In this document: piece after piece, positions 3,344 through 10,828 of the stretch
Layout: each line of letters starts with the position of its first letter
Numbering within the stretch: the first letter of the stretch is position 1
From: Candidatus Latescibacterota bacterium
Lineage (GTDB): Bacteria > Latescibacterota > UBA2968 > GCA-2709665
Length of the DNA: 64,000 nt
NCBI GenBank assembly: GCA_965248435.1
Contig: OZ252100.1
Span: forward strand, 1,440,001-1,504,000
Direction: 5' to 3'
Notes under the pieces: generated by a model
The model's database searches: none
Told to the model about the DNA's origin: nothing
Seen by the model: the letters and a program-made list of their open reading frames with translations, nothing else
Position numbers and translations under genes: made by a program

Positions 3344-3432
3344 GTATAACGTTCTCGCGGGCTGCGAACCTGCCGAAGGCAGGTTAGGTCCGAGGCCCGA
3401 AAGGGCCTGAGCCGCGCACGGTCGTGTTATGA
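3344..3432 (-). repeat. attC site 4 (89 bp, short variant)
   Basis: R'' TCATAAC (3432-3426) overlaps the TAA of the upstream gene; R' GTTATAC (3350-3344); central variable stem reduced to aacctgccgaaggcaggtt. Confidence 0.9.
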
Positions 3433-4257
3433 GCCGTGCCGCTCAATTACTGTGATGAGATCATACTCTTCGTGTAATCTGTATCCAAGCTTTAGAGCAA
3501 GACCGTCTGATCGTGGATTTTCGGTGGTTCCCCAATGAGGCTCCTTGTCACTCCTTATGCATTCTGACAGAAGGGCAGCTGAGGCGACAGTTGCAAGACC
3601 TAATTTCTGAAAGCCGTCATCTGTTCCCACTCCCACCTCAATCGAGGATTCACTCACTCCGAAGGAAGTGGCTTCCGCAACTCGTTCACCGTCCTTGAGA
3701 ATCCAAAAACTGATTCCGCCTCGTTCAAAGAATCGTCTCAGCCTGACAAAGGCCAGAACCTTTCTTTCCACATCGATCCCTCTTTCCCTTGCCATTTCCT
3801 CATCGAACCGACGGAGCTCAAATCCAGGCCGCAGCCGACCTCTGAGGTCCGAGAGATGGGTGAGGTCCAGGAACTTTGCAGAGTAAATCTTCCTTCTCCG
3901 TGTCAGGACTCTCTTTTCAATAGCCGAAAGTATAGCCGTGTTCCACTCCTCATTCTCTGGTGTCAAGAGTTCTCCGGTGAACTCGGTACTCCACTGGGGG
4001 TAAGAATTGGCAACAGAAATCCTCGAACAGATTTCCCCAAGACTCGTCAAAGATGGATCCCCGCCAATCAGAACGTCTGAACCCACCCTCAACTTAGCGA
4101 TCCGAGGATTCACAGCATCATCCACGGAAACCTCGACAAAGTCCTTAAATCCGTCGAAATAACCTTCGAAAGTTGCGTCAATATAGGGACGAAGCCTTCT
4201 GTGGCCATCGAACAGGCTGCTACATTGGAACCAGTCTTCAGGTTTCAGTTTGACCAC
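3427..4257 (-). CDS. GNAT acetyltransferase (two-domain); gene cassette
   Basis: C-terminal IEVGVGTDDGFQKLGLA ... NPRSDGLALKLGY; stop codon lies inside attC4 R''. Confidence 0.8.
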   Translation of the reverse strand: MVKLKPEDWFQCSSLFDGHRRLRPYIDATFEGYFDGFKDFVEVSVDDAVNPRIAKLRVGSDVLIGGDPSLTSLGEICSRISVANSYPQWSTEFTGELLTPENEEWNTAILSAIEKRVLTRRRKIYSAKFLDLTHLSDLRGRLRPGFELRRFDEEMARERGIDVERKVLAFVRLRRFFERGGISFWILKDGERVAEATSFGVSESSIEVGVGTDDGFQKLGLATVASAALLSECIRSDKEPHWGTTENPRSDGLALKLGYRLHEEYDLITVIERHGS

Positions 4258-4299
4258 AACAAGCTCCTCTCTTCTGCGGCATGGCTCATTGTATCTTGA

Positions 4300-4495
4300 A
4301 AATATGATCTATTTGTAGATTATCTTGGTTCGAAGAAGACCTCTGGGGAGGCCGGATTGCGCATGAAGGCATTGACCTTGGACGTTAGATAGGCCCCCCG
4401 CCTTCTTGGCCCATGCCGAGGAGTATCCGAGACCCGAGAGTCTGTATCACAAGGCTGGTAGGCCAGGTGCAAGGTCGGGGGACCAGAGGTACAAA
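4300..4495 (+). ncRNA. Putative bridge RNA of the IS110 element (boundaries approximate)
   Basis: Guides appear in the IS621 order. LTG ATTGCGCAT 4356-4364 matches left target ATGGCTCAT at 7/9. RTG ACGTTAG 4382-4388 is the reverse complement of CTAACGT. LDG GAGTATC 4421-4427 equals the right end 5514-5520. RDG ACAAG 4449-4453 is the reverse complement of CTTGT. Confidence 0.8.
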
Positions 4496-4511
4496 TAAGG
4501 AGGGAGAGATC

Positions 4512-5504
4512 ATGAAGCAAGAGAATCTGTTGGGGGTAGATGTCTCAGCCCGGGAGCTGGTGGTCGCGATCCGTCGCTCAGGGAAAGCGTATCCACTGGC
4601 AAGATTTCCCAACACAGGCGAAGGGCACCGTCGATTGATCAAGTGGGCGACAAAGCGGGGAAAGCCGGCTCGAGTGGGAGTCGAGGCCACAGGCATCTAT
4701 AGTTTTGAGGTGGCGTTGGCGTTGTATCGGCATCCGAAGACTCAGGTGATGGTAATCAACCCCAGAGCGCTGAGGAATTTCTCTCAGGCTTTGATGAAAC
4801 GGGGGAAAACCGACCCGATCGATGCGGAAGTGGCATTGGAGTATGTGCAGCGGATGCCCTTCCAGACGTGGCAGGCACCCCGTGATGAAGTACTTGACCT
4901 GCAGGCGATTACACGCCGGATCGCGCAGATCAAAGTCGAGATCAACCGGGAAGGAAACCGGCTTCACGCTTCCACGCAACGCCCATCGGTCGCGTCTGCG
5001 GTCGCCTTGGACATCGAAGAGCATGTTGAACATCTCAAAGCGCGTGTGCAGCAGCTGAAAGCGCGGGCTCTGGAGCTCATTGAGGGGGAAGCCACTCTGC
5101 GCGAGAAGTTCGCGCGATTGACTTCCGTTCACGGGATCGCAGCAACCAGCGCGATGGGCATTCTGGCAGAGATTTCGATGTTGCCTGCCGACATGAAGCC
5201 TGCCCAATGGGTGGCCTACGCAGGCCTGGATCCACGACCCCACGAATCGGGAGACACGATTCAGAAGCGCCGAGTGATCTCCAAAGCGGGGAATAAGTAC
5301 TTACGAACCGCCTTATATATGCCAGCGCTGGTGGCCATTCAACAGCAGCCCAATGTGAAGGCGTTCTACGAAAAACTCATCAGTCGAGGCAAGAAGCCCA
5401 TGCAGGGGGTCATCGCGGTGATGCGAAAGCTGCTTCACTCCATCTGGGGTATTCTCCAACACAACCAGGACTTCGACGGAGAAAAGTTCTACAAAATGGC
5501 TTGA
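4512..5504 (+). CDS. IS110 family transposase / bridge recombinase (DEDD RuvC-like + Tnp_20 domains)
   Basis: GVDVS, VEATG, KTDPIDA, YAGLDPRPHESG, SKAGNKYLRTALYMPA. Start chosen at ATG 4512 behind an AGGAGGGAG RBS. Confidence 0.95.
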   Translation: MKQENLLGVDVSARELVVAIRRSGKAYPLARFPNTGEGHRRLIKWATKRGKPARVGVEATGIYSFEVALALYRHPKTQVMVINPRALRNFSQALMKRGKTDPIDAEVALEYVQRMPFQTWQAPRDEVLDLQAITRRIAQIKVEINREGNRLHASTQRPSVASAVALDIEEHVEHLKARVQQLKARALELIEGEATLREKFARLTSVHGIAATSAMGILAEISMLPADMKPAQWVAYAGLDPRPHESGDTIQKRRVISKAGNKYLRTALYMPALVAIQQQPNVKAFYEKLISRGKKPMQGVIAVMRKLLHSIWGILQHNQDFDGEKFYKMA

Positions 5505-5521
5505 CCACCAAGAGAGTATCT
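5501..5521 (+). promoter_or_regulatory. -35 half of a circle-junction promoter (pairs with -10 TATCTT at 4292-4297 after excision)
   Basis: TTGACC (5501-5506) + 15 nt of right end + TG (4290-4291) gives exactly 17 nt to TATCTT. Confidence 0.75.
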
Positions 5522-5616
5522 AACGTTCCCGCGGGCTGCGAACCTGCCCAAGCGCAGCGAAGGCAGGTTAGGTCGGAGGCCCGAAAGGGCCGGAGCCGCA
5601 GCCCGACGTGTTAAGT
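5518..5616 (-). repeat. attC site 5 (99 bp; R' now partly IS-derived)
   Basis: R'' ACTTAAC (5616-5610); R' GTTAGAT (5524-5518); body nearly identical to attC4. Confidence 0.88.
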
Positions 5617-5986
5617 GTCCGTGCCGGTGCCCGTATCGAGATACGCTCCAACATCGCGGTCAGACGGATGTCCAGCGTCCGCAGGTCCAGCCCTCCTACT
5701 GACCGATTTGACTCCCTGCAGTACGTGTGTTTCCTTCTCCGACAAGGGCACTATATTAGCGATGGCTATAGCACGACATTGTAGGAGAGACCCGAGCAGT
5801 TCGAGATCGATGACGATATGATGTCCAATCTCGGGCCTGACGGGACATCAATGCTTTGGATCGACCAAAGAGAGATATGTCGACACGAATCCATAGAACC
5901 GAGTGCCCAAGCCGGAAGCTACTTTACCAGCCATCCAGGCGCAAGAAATGGGCCTTGTAGTTCCTACACGTAGAGGAGACCAGAAG

Positions 5987-7430: not shown

Positions 7431-8615
7431 TCAAGCTACGGCAACATGTGCCGGAGGCGCTCGCAGAGGCGCGAGGGTTCCGACTGTGAGCATAGGGCCT
7501 CCGCACTGCGCACAGACCTGAAGATCGATGCCTGTTACCCGGAGCAGAAGGTCCTGCCAGGTCGCCTTTGTGGCTGCGGAAGCCGTCGTGCATACAGTGC
7601 CCAGGAGCCTACGGCATCGTGCGAGCTTTTTCCGGCGACCCCGATTGCTGAGCAGTCCGTAGTGCCGGATCTTCACGAAGCCATCCGGCAGGATGTGAAG
7701 CAGGAACCGCCGGATGAACTCGTAGGCATCGACGGTCATCAGCTTCCGTCGGTTGCCGTCCTGGCGGTCCCGGTAGTGGAATGAGACCCGGTCGCCCTCA
7801 CAGGCGACCAGCCGGTGGTTGGAGATGGCGATCCGGTGTGTGTATCGTCCCAGATAGGCCACGACGCGTTCTGGATCCGCAAAAGTCGGCTTGACGTAAA
7901 CGGTCCATTCTCTCTGGTAAAGACCCCGAAGCAGATCGAAGAACGCATCTTCCAGTGGAGCACTCAATCCCGGGAACGCCAGAAGGCCTTCCTGGTGCGC
8001 GTCCTTCAGGAACGCAAGGAACTTCCCCCGGAACAGTCGGGACAGAACTTTTACGGGTAGAAAGAAGCCCCGTCGCGCCGCCTTCCATTCCTGACCGTCG
8101 TGGGTCAGCCCACCTCCAGTTACGATACAGTGCAGATGCGGGTGGTCGATGAGTGTCTGAGACCACGTATGAAGCACGGCGGTAAAGCCGATCTGCGCTC
8201 CAAGATACTTCCGTTCCCGCGCCAGCTCCAGAAGACTCTGCGATGCGGCTTTAAACACCAGGTTGTAGATCAGCTTCTGGTTCCGCAGAGCAAGCGGCCG
8301 CAGGGGCTCGGGCAACGTGAAGACGACGTGGAAGTATGGGATCGGAAGGAGATCCTCTTTACGAGCGTCGATCCATCGTTCGGTCGTCAGGAACTGGCAC
8401 TTCGTACAGTGCCGGTTGCGGCAGGAGTTGTAGGCGATCCGCTTCGCTCCGCAGTGTCCGCACACTTCCACGTGTCCGCCCAGCGCAGCTGTTCGGCAGA
8501 TCTGGATAGCCCGCATGGCCCGCTTCTGCCGAAGCGGCATGTGATCACCGTATTCTACTTGATAGCTGTCTCCGTGGGCCCGGAAGATGTCGGCGACTTC
8601 GAGAGCCTGTGACAT
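7431..8615 (-). CDS. IS91 family rolling-circle (HUH/Y2) transposase with N-terminal Zn-binding domain
   Basis: CRTAALGGH...CGHC...SCRNRHCTKC, HVVFTLP, HTW...HPHLH (HUH), YLGRYTHR (YxxxY), RHYGLL. Confidence 0.95.
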   Translation of the reverse strand: MSQALEVADIFRAHGDSYQVEYGDHMPLRQKRAMRAIQICRTAALGGHVEVCGHCGAKRIAYNSCRNRHCTKCQFLTTERWIDARKEDLLPIPYFHVVFTLPEPLRPLALRNQKLIYNLVFKAASQSLLELARERKYLGAQIGFTAVLHTWSQTLIDHPHLHCIVTGGGLTHDGQEWKAARRGFFLPVKVLSRLFRGKFLAFLKDAHQEGLLAFPGLSAPLEDAFFDLLRGLYQREWTVYVKPTFADPERVVAYLGRYTHRIAISNHRLVACEGDRVSFHYRDRQDGNRRKLMTVDAYEFIRRFLLHILPDGFVKIRHYGLLSNRGRRKKLARCRRLLGTVCTTASAATKATWQDLLLRVTGIDLQVCAQCGGPMLTVGTLAPLRAPPAHVAVA

Positions 8616-8627
8616 GGCCGACCTCCG

Positions 8628-9479
8628 CTACGAAGTCGGCTTGTCTTCATCTCCCAAAAGGTCCAGGGGGCTTCTGATACGCGTGAGGTCCCGGGTGGTG
8701 ACGTGGAGGTAGACGGTGGTGGTTCGAATGCTCGTGTGACCCAACAGTTGTTGGACGAAGCGGATGTCGACTCCGTTGTCCAGAAGATGCGTGGCGAAGC
8801 TGTGACGCAGCGAGTGGACACTCGCACGCTTTTGTATCTCCGCGCGTCGGCAGGCCTGCTCGAAGACTTTCTGGACAGTGCGAGCATGGAGCGGCGCGTC
8901 CGGTCTTTCGCCGGGGAACAGCCAATCGCGAGACGGGTTGGTGCGCCAATAGACGCGGAGTGCCTTTAAGGCCTCCTGGGCCAGAAGCGTCTCTCGCTCT
9001 TTTTGGCCTTTGCCCCGCACACGGATCAGCATCCGGTCACTGTCGATATCGGAAAGCTTTAGCCCGATGGCCTCACTCAGTCTGAGCCCGCCAGAGTAAA
9101 TGACCATCAGCAGCGTACGGTGTTTCAGGTTGTTGGTCCTGTCGATCAGCCGCTGCACTTCCTCTGTGGAGAGTACCACCGGGAGCTTCTTTGCCTTCTT
9201 CGCACGAGGGATGCCCCACTCGACCCAGTCACGCTTCAACGTCGTTTGGAACAGAAACTTCAGCCCGCTGTATACCTGGTTGACATAGCTTTGGGACAGC
9301 TTCCGCTCAGTGATCAGATAGTGCAGATAGGCGCGGATCTCTTCTTCGCTGAGCCGGTCGGGCGGTGTCTTGCAGTAACGACACAGCCCGGCCACTCCGC
9401 TCACGTACGCCTTCTGCGTATCCGGATCTAAACCTTTCAACTGCATGTCCCGGATCATTCGCTTCCGATGCTTGGTCAT
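8628..9479 (-). CDS. Tyrosine recombinase (N-terminal SAM-like + catalytic domain), IS91-associated type
   Basis: YSGGLRLSE, GKGQKER, HSLRHSFATHLL, LLGH, TTVYLHV; 283 aa; lacks the IntI-specific insertion. Confidence 0.93.
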   Translation of the reverse strand: MTKHRKRMIRDMQLKGLDPDTQKAYVSGVAGLCRYCKTPPDRLSEEEIRAYLHYLITERKLSQSYVNQVYSGLKFLFQTTLKRDWVEWGIPRAKKAKKLPVVLSTEEVQRLIDRTNNLKHRTLLMVIYSGGLRLSEAIGLKLSDIDSDRMLIRVRGKGQKERETLLAQEALKALRVYWRTNPSRDWLFPGERPDAPLHARTVQKVFEQACRRAEIQKRASVHSLRHSFATHLLDNGVDIRFVQQLLGHTSIRTTTVYLHVTTRDLTRIRSPLDLLGDEDKPTS

Positions 9480-9814: not shown

Positions 9815-10828
9815 TCAACCCTTCCTGACTCGCTCTGCCAATCCCTCTTCCACGAGCTGTCGGTTCAGAAACAGGCCCTTTTCCAGCACTTCCTCCGCCG
9901 CTTCTCCACCTGGCAGGTAAAACAGATCCGCCAGGTACCGATCGTATTTGTCCGGCTTCGTCGTCGTCACGACGACGAACGGCACCCCTTTCAGCGCCTC
10001 CGCGACAAAGTCCCTGGCACGCACGCCTTCCGGCGTCTCGAGTTCTGGCGTGTCGATCCCCCGCAGCCTCACCTTCTGCCTCGCCCACACCCGGAACCCG
10101 CAGTCGATGTCTAGCCAGACCGTATCTCCGTCGATGACGCGCAGAACGCGCGCCACGTAGGTATAGAATGCGGCGGTTCGTTCGGCGGCTTCAGCGAAGC
10201 GGTAGACCTCGGGCCCTTCGCGCGTCGCCTTTAAGAACTGCCCCGCGCGGAGCCCGTCAGCGTCCGGAATCGGCCAGGCGAGCTGAGTCCCGAACCCCAG
10301 GTCCAGCCTCAGGCCGCGCGCCTCGACCAGCTTGTAGGTGTAGAACTGCCCGCGCAATGCCGGCAGCTGTAGCGCTGGCCCTGATCCTGGAACCCGCGAT
10401 TTTGCGTCCGCGAACGCTCCGGACCGGATCTGAGCCTCCAGTTCACGCACGCTCCAGCGATGCTCCTGGGCGGCTGCCTCAGCGGCCTGCCGCTGGGCGT
10501 CTTCTGGGAGCTTCAGCAGGGCCCGGTAATGAGTCCAACCCAATTTTCCACGCGCGTGGAAAATTGGGCGAAATCGATAAAAAGCCACGGCCTCATACAG
10601 AATCGAGTTACTGAGCCCGACGTCGGCCGCAAGCCGCACCAGGGTCTGCTCTCCGTACGTGGCCGGATGCGAGAGCAGGTATTCACTCACCACCCCGCCG
10701 ATCGCGTGGTAGGTGCGCAGCGTCTCACGCTCCACCGCCGCGGCAGCCCTCGCCTTCCCTTCCCGGAGGAGGCGGGTCACTTCAGTCTTCAGAGCGGGGT
10801 ACTCGTCAGCTAGAATCGCTTGTGTCAT
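9815..10828 (-). CDS. DUF1016/YhcG N-terminal domain fused to a thermonuclease (SNase) domain
   Basis: N-terminal LGWTHYRALL, WSVRELEAQI; C-terminal RVIDGDT, VRLRGIDTPE, DKYDRYLA, LNRQLVEEGLA. Confidence 0.8.
   Translation of the reverse strand: MTQAILADEYPALKTEVTRLLREGKARAAAAVERETLRTYHAIGGVVSEYLLSHPATYGEQTLVRLAADVGLSNSILYEAVAFYRFRPIFHARGKLGWTHYRALLKLPEDAQRQAAEAAAQEHRWSVRELEAQIRSGAFADAKSRVPGSGPALQLPALRGQFYTYKLVEARGLRLDLGFGTQLAWPIPDADGLRAGQFLKATREGPEVYRFAEAAERTAAFYTYVARVLRVIDGDTVWLDIDCGFRVWARQKVRLRGIDTPELETPEGVRARDFVAEALKGVPFVVVTTTKPDKYDRYLADLFYLPGGEAAEEVLEKGLFLNRQLVEEGLAERVRKG

Follow-up and report, generated by a model that had tools for sequence, protein, structure and literature searches.

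The best-described relatives of the element treated here are the IS110-group insertion sequences (ISs) IS621 and ISCro4. As reported, they combine a two-domain DEDD/Ser recombinase with a long left end encoding a bridge RNA, whose target and donor loops each carry a left guide in top-strand sense and a right guide in complementary sense, with the core dinucleotide included in each guide. The IS621 reports further describe two-nucleotide handshake guides, an xT core in which AT, GT and TT also work and only T is nearly invariant (PMC11208158), and a junction promoter with its -35 element in the right end and its -10 element in the left end, complete only in the excised circle (PMC11208160). A long non-coding end upstream of the gene is described as the mark of the IS110 group as opposed to the IS1111 group (Durrant et al., 2024; PMC11208160). 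Two other kinds of element are reported to be specialised for integron attC sites and to lie antisense to the cassette genes (PMC3001079). These are the IS1111-attC elements, which also belong to the DEDD family, are RNA-guided (seekRNA; PMC11187229) and target one attC end, and the group IIC-attC introns, which are retro-elements with a ribozyme and a reverse transcriptase and are mechanistically unrelated. The element examined by us lies in a 64,000-nucleotide stretch of the genome of Candidatus Latescibacterota bacterium (GenBank assembly GCA_965248435.1, contig OZ252100.1, positions 1,440,001 to 1,504,000), referred to below as the window. Its sequence shows the listed features of IS621 and ISCro4, with a predicted bridge RNA and a proposed junction promoter, and it is inserted in an attC-like repeat.

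Our analysis indicates that this is very probably an active or recently active IS110-group element, which works like IS621 and uses attC-like repeats as its target. The mechanism is already known from IS621 and attC targeting is known for the IS1111 group; it is the target class that is new for the IS110 group. No description of an IS110-group left-end bridge-RNA element aimed at attC was found in the literature searched; the supplementary target motifs of Durrant et al. (2024) may include attC-like ones. PMC11187229 and a GES-5 preprint, two papers on IS110-family elements and attC, concern the IS1111 group, and one bridge-RNA paper mentions attC only in citing IS1111 work. Whereas the natural IS621 target is reported as ATCAGGC-CT-AC, the present element is directed to the end of an attC-like repeat, with the sequence ATTGCGC-xT-AACGT. 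The locus also differs from IS621 and ISCro4 in that the left target guide encodes the core as AT and the right one as CT, in that the guide fits a degenerate repeat family by consensus and not one exact sequence, and in its recombinase, which is distant, yet alignable end to end.

Read from the sequence, the element measures 1232 bp with one core copy included (window 4290-5521) and consists of a 222-nt non-coding left end (4290-4511), a 330-aa recombinase gene (4512-5504) with AAGGAGG just ahead of its start, and a 17-nt right end (5505-5521). The flank and core to the left, positions 4281-4289, read ATGGCTCAT, after which the element opens with TGTATCT; it closes with AGAGTAT (5513-5519) and CT (5520-5521), followed by AACGTTCC. 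The ends, the coordinates and the four guide strings named in the original prediction are correct on direct reading, and so is the donor AGAGTAT-CT-TGTAT, which it had obtained by rejoining the two ends. The features of the locus are as follows.

4281-4289, + strand: left target ATGGCTC with the target-derived core AT; varies between copies
4290-5521, + strand: IS110-group insertion sequence, 1232 bp with one core copy (CT, 5520-5521); limits from homology among copies
4290-4296, + strand: right donor arm TGTATCT; TGTA[T/C]CTT at the left terminus in 10 of 10 lineages
4292-4297, + strand: TATCTT, proposed -10 element of a circle-junction promoter; read from the sequence
4345-4399, + strand: target-binding loop module, with outer stem GGGG-A-GGCC / GGCC-CCCC and inner hairpin 4365-4379; 92.9% and 100% of cells paired in helices 2 and 3
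4356-4364, + strand: left target guide ATTGCGC-AT, in left-target sense, pairing with the bottom strand
4382-4390, + strand: right target guide ACGTTAG, pairing with top-strand CT-AACGT, and handshake guide AT (4389-4390); 5 of 5 right-target positions agree in all three copies
4404-4468, + strand: donor-binding loop module, with outer stem 4404-4411/4461-4468 plus 4416-4418/4456-4458 and inner stem 4430-4433/4440-4443; from RNAalifold and pair counts
4421-4427, + strand: left donor guide GAGTATC; relatives read AGAGTATCT at the homologous position
4449-4455, + strand: right donor guide ACAAG, pairing with CT-TGT, and handshake guide GC (4454-4455), which pairs with positions 7 and 6 of the guide-implied target
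4512-5504, + strand: recombinase gene, 330 aa, DEDD RuvC-like domain plus Tnp domain with catalytic Ser; from Pfam, NCBIfam and PDB matches
5501-5506, + strand: TTGACC, proposed -35 element, overlapping the stop codon; TTGAnn 15-16 nt from the right terminus in 10 of 10 lineages
5513-5521, + strand: left donor arm AGAGTAT with core CT; read from the sequence
5522-5616, + strand: right target AACGT and the remainder of the attC-like hairpin repeat, terminating in GTTAAGT; from comparison of repeats

The search of the host genome (5.67 Mb, two contigs) gave five matches to the element, of which one (26 nt) was disregarded. Three are full copies, each with an intact 330-aa frame: the window copy, a copy at C1:2066278-2067534 identical to it over 1257 nt (100%), and a copy on the opposite strand at C1:3860680-3861922, which is 98% identical. 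The remaining match is a left-end fragment (C1:4835981-4836236; 94% identity), which ends after about 256 nt. Homology among the three full copies and the fragment places the start of the element at 4289/4290, at T-TGTATCT, and its end at 5521, at GAGAGTATCT. All three full copies are located at xT|AACGTTC in cassette arrays, that is, at the conserved end of an attC-like hairpin repeat. Their right flanks invariably start with AACGTTC(C/T)CG; the left flanks of copies 1, 2, and 3 are ATGGCTC-AT, ACTGCGC-AT, and ATTGCAT-CT. The core thus reads CT at the right junction in all three copies and AT, AT, and CT at the left junction, with an invariant T. The predicted CT core is borne out on the right side and, on the left, in copy 3. 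Insertion of other copies at attC or TAACGT, which had also been predicted, was seen in all three genome copies and also in two further data sets and two related lineages.

The sequence AACGTTC[CT]CG occurs 63 times in the genome. Forty-five of these occurrences form six arrays (contig C1, about 968-993, 1439-1447, 2055-2085, 3854-3871, 4948-4951, and 5548-5552 kb), are co-oriented within each array and lie at intervals of about 0.6-8 kb; the IS occupies three of the 45. Within the window, TAACGT is also present at the uninterrupted repeats at 2593 and 3346, as the original prediction had it. A hairpin repeat extends about 60-170 nt from each site and is composed of xT-AAC, GTTCTC(G), a 9-bp arm, a variable branched middle, the complementary arm, xCGT and GTTAnnn. 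The repeat ends carry motifs of the RYYYAAC ... GTTRRRY type, as in the inverse core and core of an imperfect palindrome. The arms covary: 19 of 113 AACGTTCYC sites have an exact reverse-complement 8-mer partner followed by GTT (0 in the reversed control), and at least four arm sequences occur, each with its exact partner. The central parts differ in length. In all 36 intervals without an IS, the longest open reading frame (ORF) is on the strand opposite to AACGTTCTCG. The cassettes of the window encode two GNAT acetyltransferases, a peptidase S51 fragment and a PhyH-type dioxygenase. The assumption that the cassette stop codon generally lies in the far-end TAAC was dropped, since it holds for the GNAT cassette (3427-3429) and for 3 of the 18 sites tested.

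The element could be exactly as described and yet be directed to a different structured repeat, such as the repetitive extragenic palindromic (REP)-like or miniature inverted-repeat transposable element (MITE)-like palindromes used by IS621 and many IS110 members. We consider this unlikely. The co-oriented and widely spaced arrays, the uniform relative strand of the ORFs, the motifs at the repeat ends with their exactly paired arm variants, and the cassette-like genes all argue against it, and true integron integrases are encoded in 6 of 61 related genomes. Speaking for such a repeat is the host genome itself, in which no intact integron integrase was detected. The best TIGR02249 score, 195.5 bits against a cut-off of 265, was that of a tyrosine recombinase that is present in six copies and paired with an IS91 transposase; near the arrays there is only an 82-aa C-terminal integrase-like remnant (about C1:4954353-4954601), about 4 kb from one of them. 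Nor could the repeat family be linked to the integrases of the relatives: crude hairpin scans beside intI in G004, G060, and G054 gave noise, and in five genomes with an integrase TAACGTTCYCG shows no clustering. On the other hand, attC arrays that lack an integrase are a recognised state (clusters of attC sites lacking integron-integrases, CALIN).

By ORF orientation, the repeat stem also differs from the published attC pattern. It comprises 9 bp without a bulge (window 3346-3435 and 5518-5616, and the genome-wide list), has no clear extrahelical bases, and carries its surplus of unpaired bases (6-7 versus 3-4) on the AACGTTCTCG arm, which is R'-L' in ORF orientation. The published rule places extrahelical bases on the R''-L'' arm, the arm with AAC on the top strand, and fits these repeats only if the strand opposite to the ORFs is taken as the top strand. 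Whether the AACGTTCTCG end is termed R', the 3' end, or R'' therefore depends on the criterion: cassette-ORF orientation (36/36) agrees with the R' assignment of the original prediction, whereas the unpaired bases point the other way. The predicted integron attC is upheld in the attC anatomy and array organisation but, with no intact integrase in the genome, 'integron' is only partly shown. The targets are most safely described as attC-like sites in integrase-less cassette arrays.

Integron integrases cut between A and C of the bottom-strand AAC at R'. By cassette-ORF orientation, the IS is located two bases from this cut point, at the start of the next cassette and antisense to the cassettes; in the window, its distance from the GNAT start, on the upstream side, is 32 nt. 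The box created by insertion, ATCT-AAC, conforms to RYYYAAC. This match is unlikely to reflect adaptation, because relatives that do not target attC have the same donor end.

Comparison with unoccupied sites suggests what the left target guide addresses. In the 42 free array sites, the majority sequence before the core is A-T-T-G-C-G followed by T, G or C, so that the guide ATTGCGC equals the majority at positions 1-6; the core AT encoded by the guide is also the commonest (17/42). The guide matches free array sites at 4.4 of 7 positions on average, as compared to 1.8 of 7 at 4195 other AACGT sites. It is thus written against the consensus of the repeat's end, which accounts for the pattern at the real insertions, each with between one and three left-side mismatches and a fully matched right side.

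Within the left end, ATTGCGCAT at 4356-4364 is identical to 4281-4289 at 7 of 9 positions, ACGTTAG at 4382-4388 is the reverse complement of CTAACGT at 5520-5526, and GAGTATC at 4421-4427 is followed by ACAAG at 4449-4453, the reverse complement of CT plus TGT. By itself, one 7-mer or one 7/9 match within 216 nt means little, and one-mismatch versions of CTAACGTT are no more frequent in the window than expected (17 versus 26 expected); the signal lies in position and covariation. The latter was examined in relatives of the recombinase, which were found in 5 of 61 close genomes (host genome G000 included; E <= 1e-40) and in 11 of 168 genomes of the phylum (E <= 1e-70). They represent ten lineages with pairwise protein identities of 49-84%. 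The test comprised 35 copies from the ten lineages and took fetched loci only (for G022, 10 of 18 matches; for G034, 9 of 35; for G026, 6 of 7); two partial genes, in G109 (L050) and G026 (L031), were excluded from it and from the tree described below. For the left target, the 9 nt before the inner hairpin were compared with the 9 nt adjoining the element on its left; for the right target, the second stretch was reverse-complemented and set against the 5 nt that follow the right-hand CT.

Guides and flanks were found to change together. The left target guide matches its own flank at 7.0 of 9 positions on average, compared with 3.85 of 9 for flanks of other lineages; the corresponding values for the right target guide are 4.35 and 2.39 of 5. 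None of 20,000 permutations of the lineage labels reached the observed sum. The guides occupy homologous loop positions in all ten lineages and follow the strand rule reported for IS621, left guides being in top-strand sense and right guides being reverse complements, with the core in both. Individual cases are exact: in G123, the left guide is AAATAGTCT and the flank AAATAGTCT; in G022, guide and flank are CTCGCCTCT and CTCGCCTCT; and in G154 the right guide implies CACGC, which is what the flank contains. Nine of the 10 lineages show pairing between the target-loop handshake guide, the 2 nt past the right target guide, and donor positions 7 and 6. For the first base of the donor-loop handshake guide and target position 7, the pair is Watson-Crick in seven lineages, wobble in two, and mismatched in one.

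The donor side varies as well. The original prediction had described the donor as almost unchanged from that of IS621; of its 14 positions, seven are fixed by published text, and all seven agree. In G102 (L045, G102:C2:12809-16795), the donor end is AGAAAACCT in place of AGAGTATCT, the left donor guide is GGAAAACC, and the target-loop handshake guide is GT instead of AT, GT versus AC being a compensatory case. This is an apparent natural donor reprogramming.

The left ends of the ten lineages share a common scaffold. It begins with the outer stem GGGG(A)GGCC/GGCCCCCC and continues with a 9-nt variable stretch, a GAAGG...CCTT hairpin, and a second variable stretch that closes with AG and two further bases; the second module consists of (A)GAGTATC(T), a 4-bp hairpin, and ACAAG. 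In the RNAalifold structure of 14 sequences from the ten lineages, the four guide stretches lie in the internal loops of two stem-loops. This arrangement, on which the original prediction had staked its case beforehand, is also what the pair counts give. For the latter, guide-guide pairs were removed, leaving 30 pairs. In the 14 sequences, 92.6% of cells are paired, versus 85.0% in shuffles, and 13 pairs change on both sides, versus a shuffled mean of 7.1; neither value was reached in any of 500 shuffles. Slid controls were 32-56% paired. In helix 4, in the donor module, all eight pairs have double changes, and pair 95:105 of the inner donor hairpin is AU in five sequences, UG in five, and CG in four. 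The single-sequence minimum-free-energy fold of the left end is no better than shuffles (z = -0.87), and the structure is clear only from the alignment. RNAalifold also pairs the left with the right target guide at A2 columns 22:46 and 23:45 (window 4360/4384 and 4361/4383), with changes on both sides (CG, GC, UA, AU); these pairs could reflect contact within the loop or could simply arise because targets are partly palindromic.

Insertions into the same family of repeats were found outside the host genome. Recombinases in G057 and G102 are 55-58% identical to the one studied here, and their elements are inserted at CT|AACGT inside arrays of this repeat family. The single copy in G057 has the flanks ATGGCGC-CT | AACGTCT, the left guide ATGACGCCT and a right guide implying AACCT; the copy in G102 has the flanks CTTTCGG-CT | AACGTTT, the left guide TTTTCGGTT and a right guide implying AACGT. 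In a recombinase tree of ten taxa, one copy per lineage, the three attC-directed lineages do not form one clade (2-3 label changes; a single change in no bootstrap tree), and the taxa are too few to separate repeated retargeting from repeated loss. Sequencing run X5, from another organism, contains a 98%-identical element (24 differences in 1240 nt), with two right flanks beginning with AACGTT. The change T4358G in the X5 copy turns the left target guide into ATGGCGCAT, which would match the left target of the window copy at 8 of 9 positions. Run X7, a vent metagenome, contains a roughly 96%-identical copy with the left flank ...GTTACTC-AT and an attC-like right flank. A joint in run X1 that goes back from 5599 to 4200 was considered as a sign of a circle and rejected, as it is best explained by the similar repeat 3348-3430 upstream of 4200.

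Other relatives have other sites. Related elements in G022, G034, and G026 (18, 35, and 7 genome matches; L010-L036) insert into tandem heptamers, such as (CCTCTCG)n and (CCTCTTA)n, and at L028 two related copies are arranged head to tail, 7 bp apart.

The following scheme would account for these observations. A bridge RNA would be transcribed from the left end, probably from a promoter formed only in the excised circle. Its donor loop (GAGTATC ... ACAAG) would recognise the joined element ends AGAGTAT-CT-TGTAT, and its target loop (ATTGCGC-AT ... ACGTTAG) would recognise ATTGCGC-(A/C)T-AACGT, the consensus of one repeat end. The DEDD/Ser recombinase would then exchange strands at the xT core. 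Insertion would take place between T and AAC of the R box in a single orientation, antisense to the cassette genes; site and orientation would be fixed because the bridge RNA is matched to the repeat end and exchange occurs at the xT core. For IS621, the top strand is reported to be cut after the core and the bottom strand four bases further left in top-strand coordinates (PMC11208158). With these cut positions, each junction keeps top-strand positions 1-9 of its left-hand partner, and recombination of ATGGCTC-AT-AACGT with AGAGTAT-CT-TGTAT would give the observed junctions ...CTC-AT-TGTAT and ...TAT-CT-AACGT.

The promoter is proposed from the two ends of the element. TTGACC ends 15 nt from the right terminus, and together with TG at the left terminus this gives a 17-nt spacer before TATCTT in a circle, which is the TTGACC-N17-TATCTT arrangement expected by the original prediction upon excision. 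In the integrated copy, the flank supplies CTCTTC at the -35 position. Conservation of TTGAnn at 15-16 nt from one terminus and of TGTA(T/C)CTT at the other in all ten lineages is consistent with a junction promoter, and the arrangement matches the behaviour reported for IS621.

Several points weigh against the proposed mode of action. The left target is matched at 7/9, 8/9, and 6/9 positions in the three copies and perfectly in none, while perfect target matches were strongly preferred in the reported IS621 screen. The left donor guide differs from its own donor arm at positions 1 and 9, and the lower part of the donor-loop stem is weaker here than in relatives. The target core is AT in two copies and the donor core CT, so exchange would have to cross a mismatched first core base. 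The structure used for the pair counts was derived from the same alignment, which favours it, and a scan of 4100-5800 against Rfam 15 with E values up to 10 gave no relevant family; the sole match in this range was a chance snoRNA match outside the element. The left-end fragment at C1:4835981-4836236 has a left flank (...CTTTCGCCC) unlike the repeat. Neither a circle junction nor an empty site was found in the sequencing-run contigs. As an observation on the fragment, a second TTGTATCT is present about 85 nt further left.

Some of these points, namely the imperfect left donor guide, the weak lower donor-loop stem, the imperfect left-target matches and the presence of a fragment, would also be expected if the copies were decayed, immobile relics, with guide matches reflecting past activity only. 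This is improbable given that two copies do not differ at all over 1257 nt, with the third at 98% identity, that all frames are intact (330 aa), and that 98% and about 96% identical copies occupy different sites in two other data sets. An active or recently active element remains our preferred explanation.

The recombinase matches PF01548 (DEDD_Tnp_IS110; 9e-23, 81.2 bits) and PF02371 (Transposase_20; 1.6e-19, 70.5 bits) and passes the NCBIfam model NF033542, 'IS110 family RNA-guided transposase', with 201.6 bits against a cut-off of 140. Its only PDB matches are ISCro4 (5.4e-41) and IS621 (1.1e-38), both aligned over residues 5-325. The catalytic Asp/Glu/Asp/Asp and Ser residues reported for IS621 (PMC11208158) are conserved in the alignment to IS621 (GVDVS, VEATG, KTDPIDA, ISKAG). 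A single-protein search of the genome contigs gave one 27-residue match only and was uninformative. Sub-terminal inverted repeats of 7-17 bp, an IS1111 trait, were not obvious on reading the element ends, and no formal scan for them was made. The predicted assignment to the IS110 rather than the IS1111 group holds as judged from the long non-coding end upstream of the gene, which encodes the putative RNA, from ISCro4 and IS621 as the best solved relatives, and from the NCBIfam match above cut-off.

Membership in the IS1111-attC group (ISPa21, ISPst6, ISKpn4 type) can be dismissed as highly improbable: the DEDD superfamily, the target class and the reported antisense orientation (PMC3001079) are the same, but only 17 nt follow the stop codon, leaving no room for the guide RNA that such elements are reported to have downstream of the gene, along with longer sub-terminal inverted repeats (PMC11208160), whereas the 222-nt upstream region holds all four guides and the best structural relatives are IS621 and ISCro4. 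The settings differ as well. IS1111-attC elements are reported to insert near the attC 5' end by cassette transcription (PMC3001079) and are known from mobile class 1 integrons and Pseudomonas, whereas the present element belongs to an environmental bacterium, where it occupies chromosomal arrays and, judged in the same way, the 3' end.

Further along the window, at 7431-9479 on the minus strand, an IS91-family transposase (394 aa; NF033538, 452.7 bits) adjoins a 283-aa tyrosine recombinase, for which the best names are XerA-type recombinase and integron integrase, both below cut-offs. The genome contains six near-identical copies of the latter, four of which are about 3-10 kb from an IS110 copy, an IS110 fragment or an array (1.449, 2.072, 3.850, and 4.844 Mb). 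Just beyond this pair (9815-10828, minus strand) lies a gene for a 337-aa protein with DUF1016 N-terminal, ParB-like helix-turn-helix and staphylococcal-nuclease domains.

It is conceivable, though doubtful, that IS110-group bridge recombinases have become specialised as parasites of cassette arrays, independently of the IS1111-attC elements and possibly more than once in this clade. The suggestion arises because the three attC-directed lineages do not form one clade in the ten-taxon tree, because insertions lie two bases from the integrase cut point by cassette-ORF orientation, and because the left guide encodes a family consensus and tolerates mismatches. Owing to this tolerance, one RNA could address dozens of non-identical sites. 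The suggestion also draws on the right end, which restores a consensus R box (ATCT-AAC); recombination at the site might thus still be possible, with the IS carried along at the front of the following cassette.

No new mechanism is involved; the element is useful as a clear case from nature, informative on mismatch and core rules and on integron biology. With it, attC targeting reaches beyond the IS1111 group into the IS621-type group, whose members are now being engineered as programmable recombinases. Together with its relatives, it documents how the programmable parts of a bridge RNA (both target guides, the left donor guide and the two handshake guides) change in nature along with their DNA partners. 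A consensus guide for a degenerate repeat family, with the core read as AT by one guide and as CT by the other, bears on off-target rules. For the cassette arrays, a mobile element at the R box of chromosomal arrays could either block cassette exchange or ride on it.

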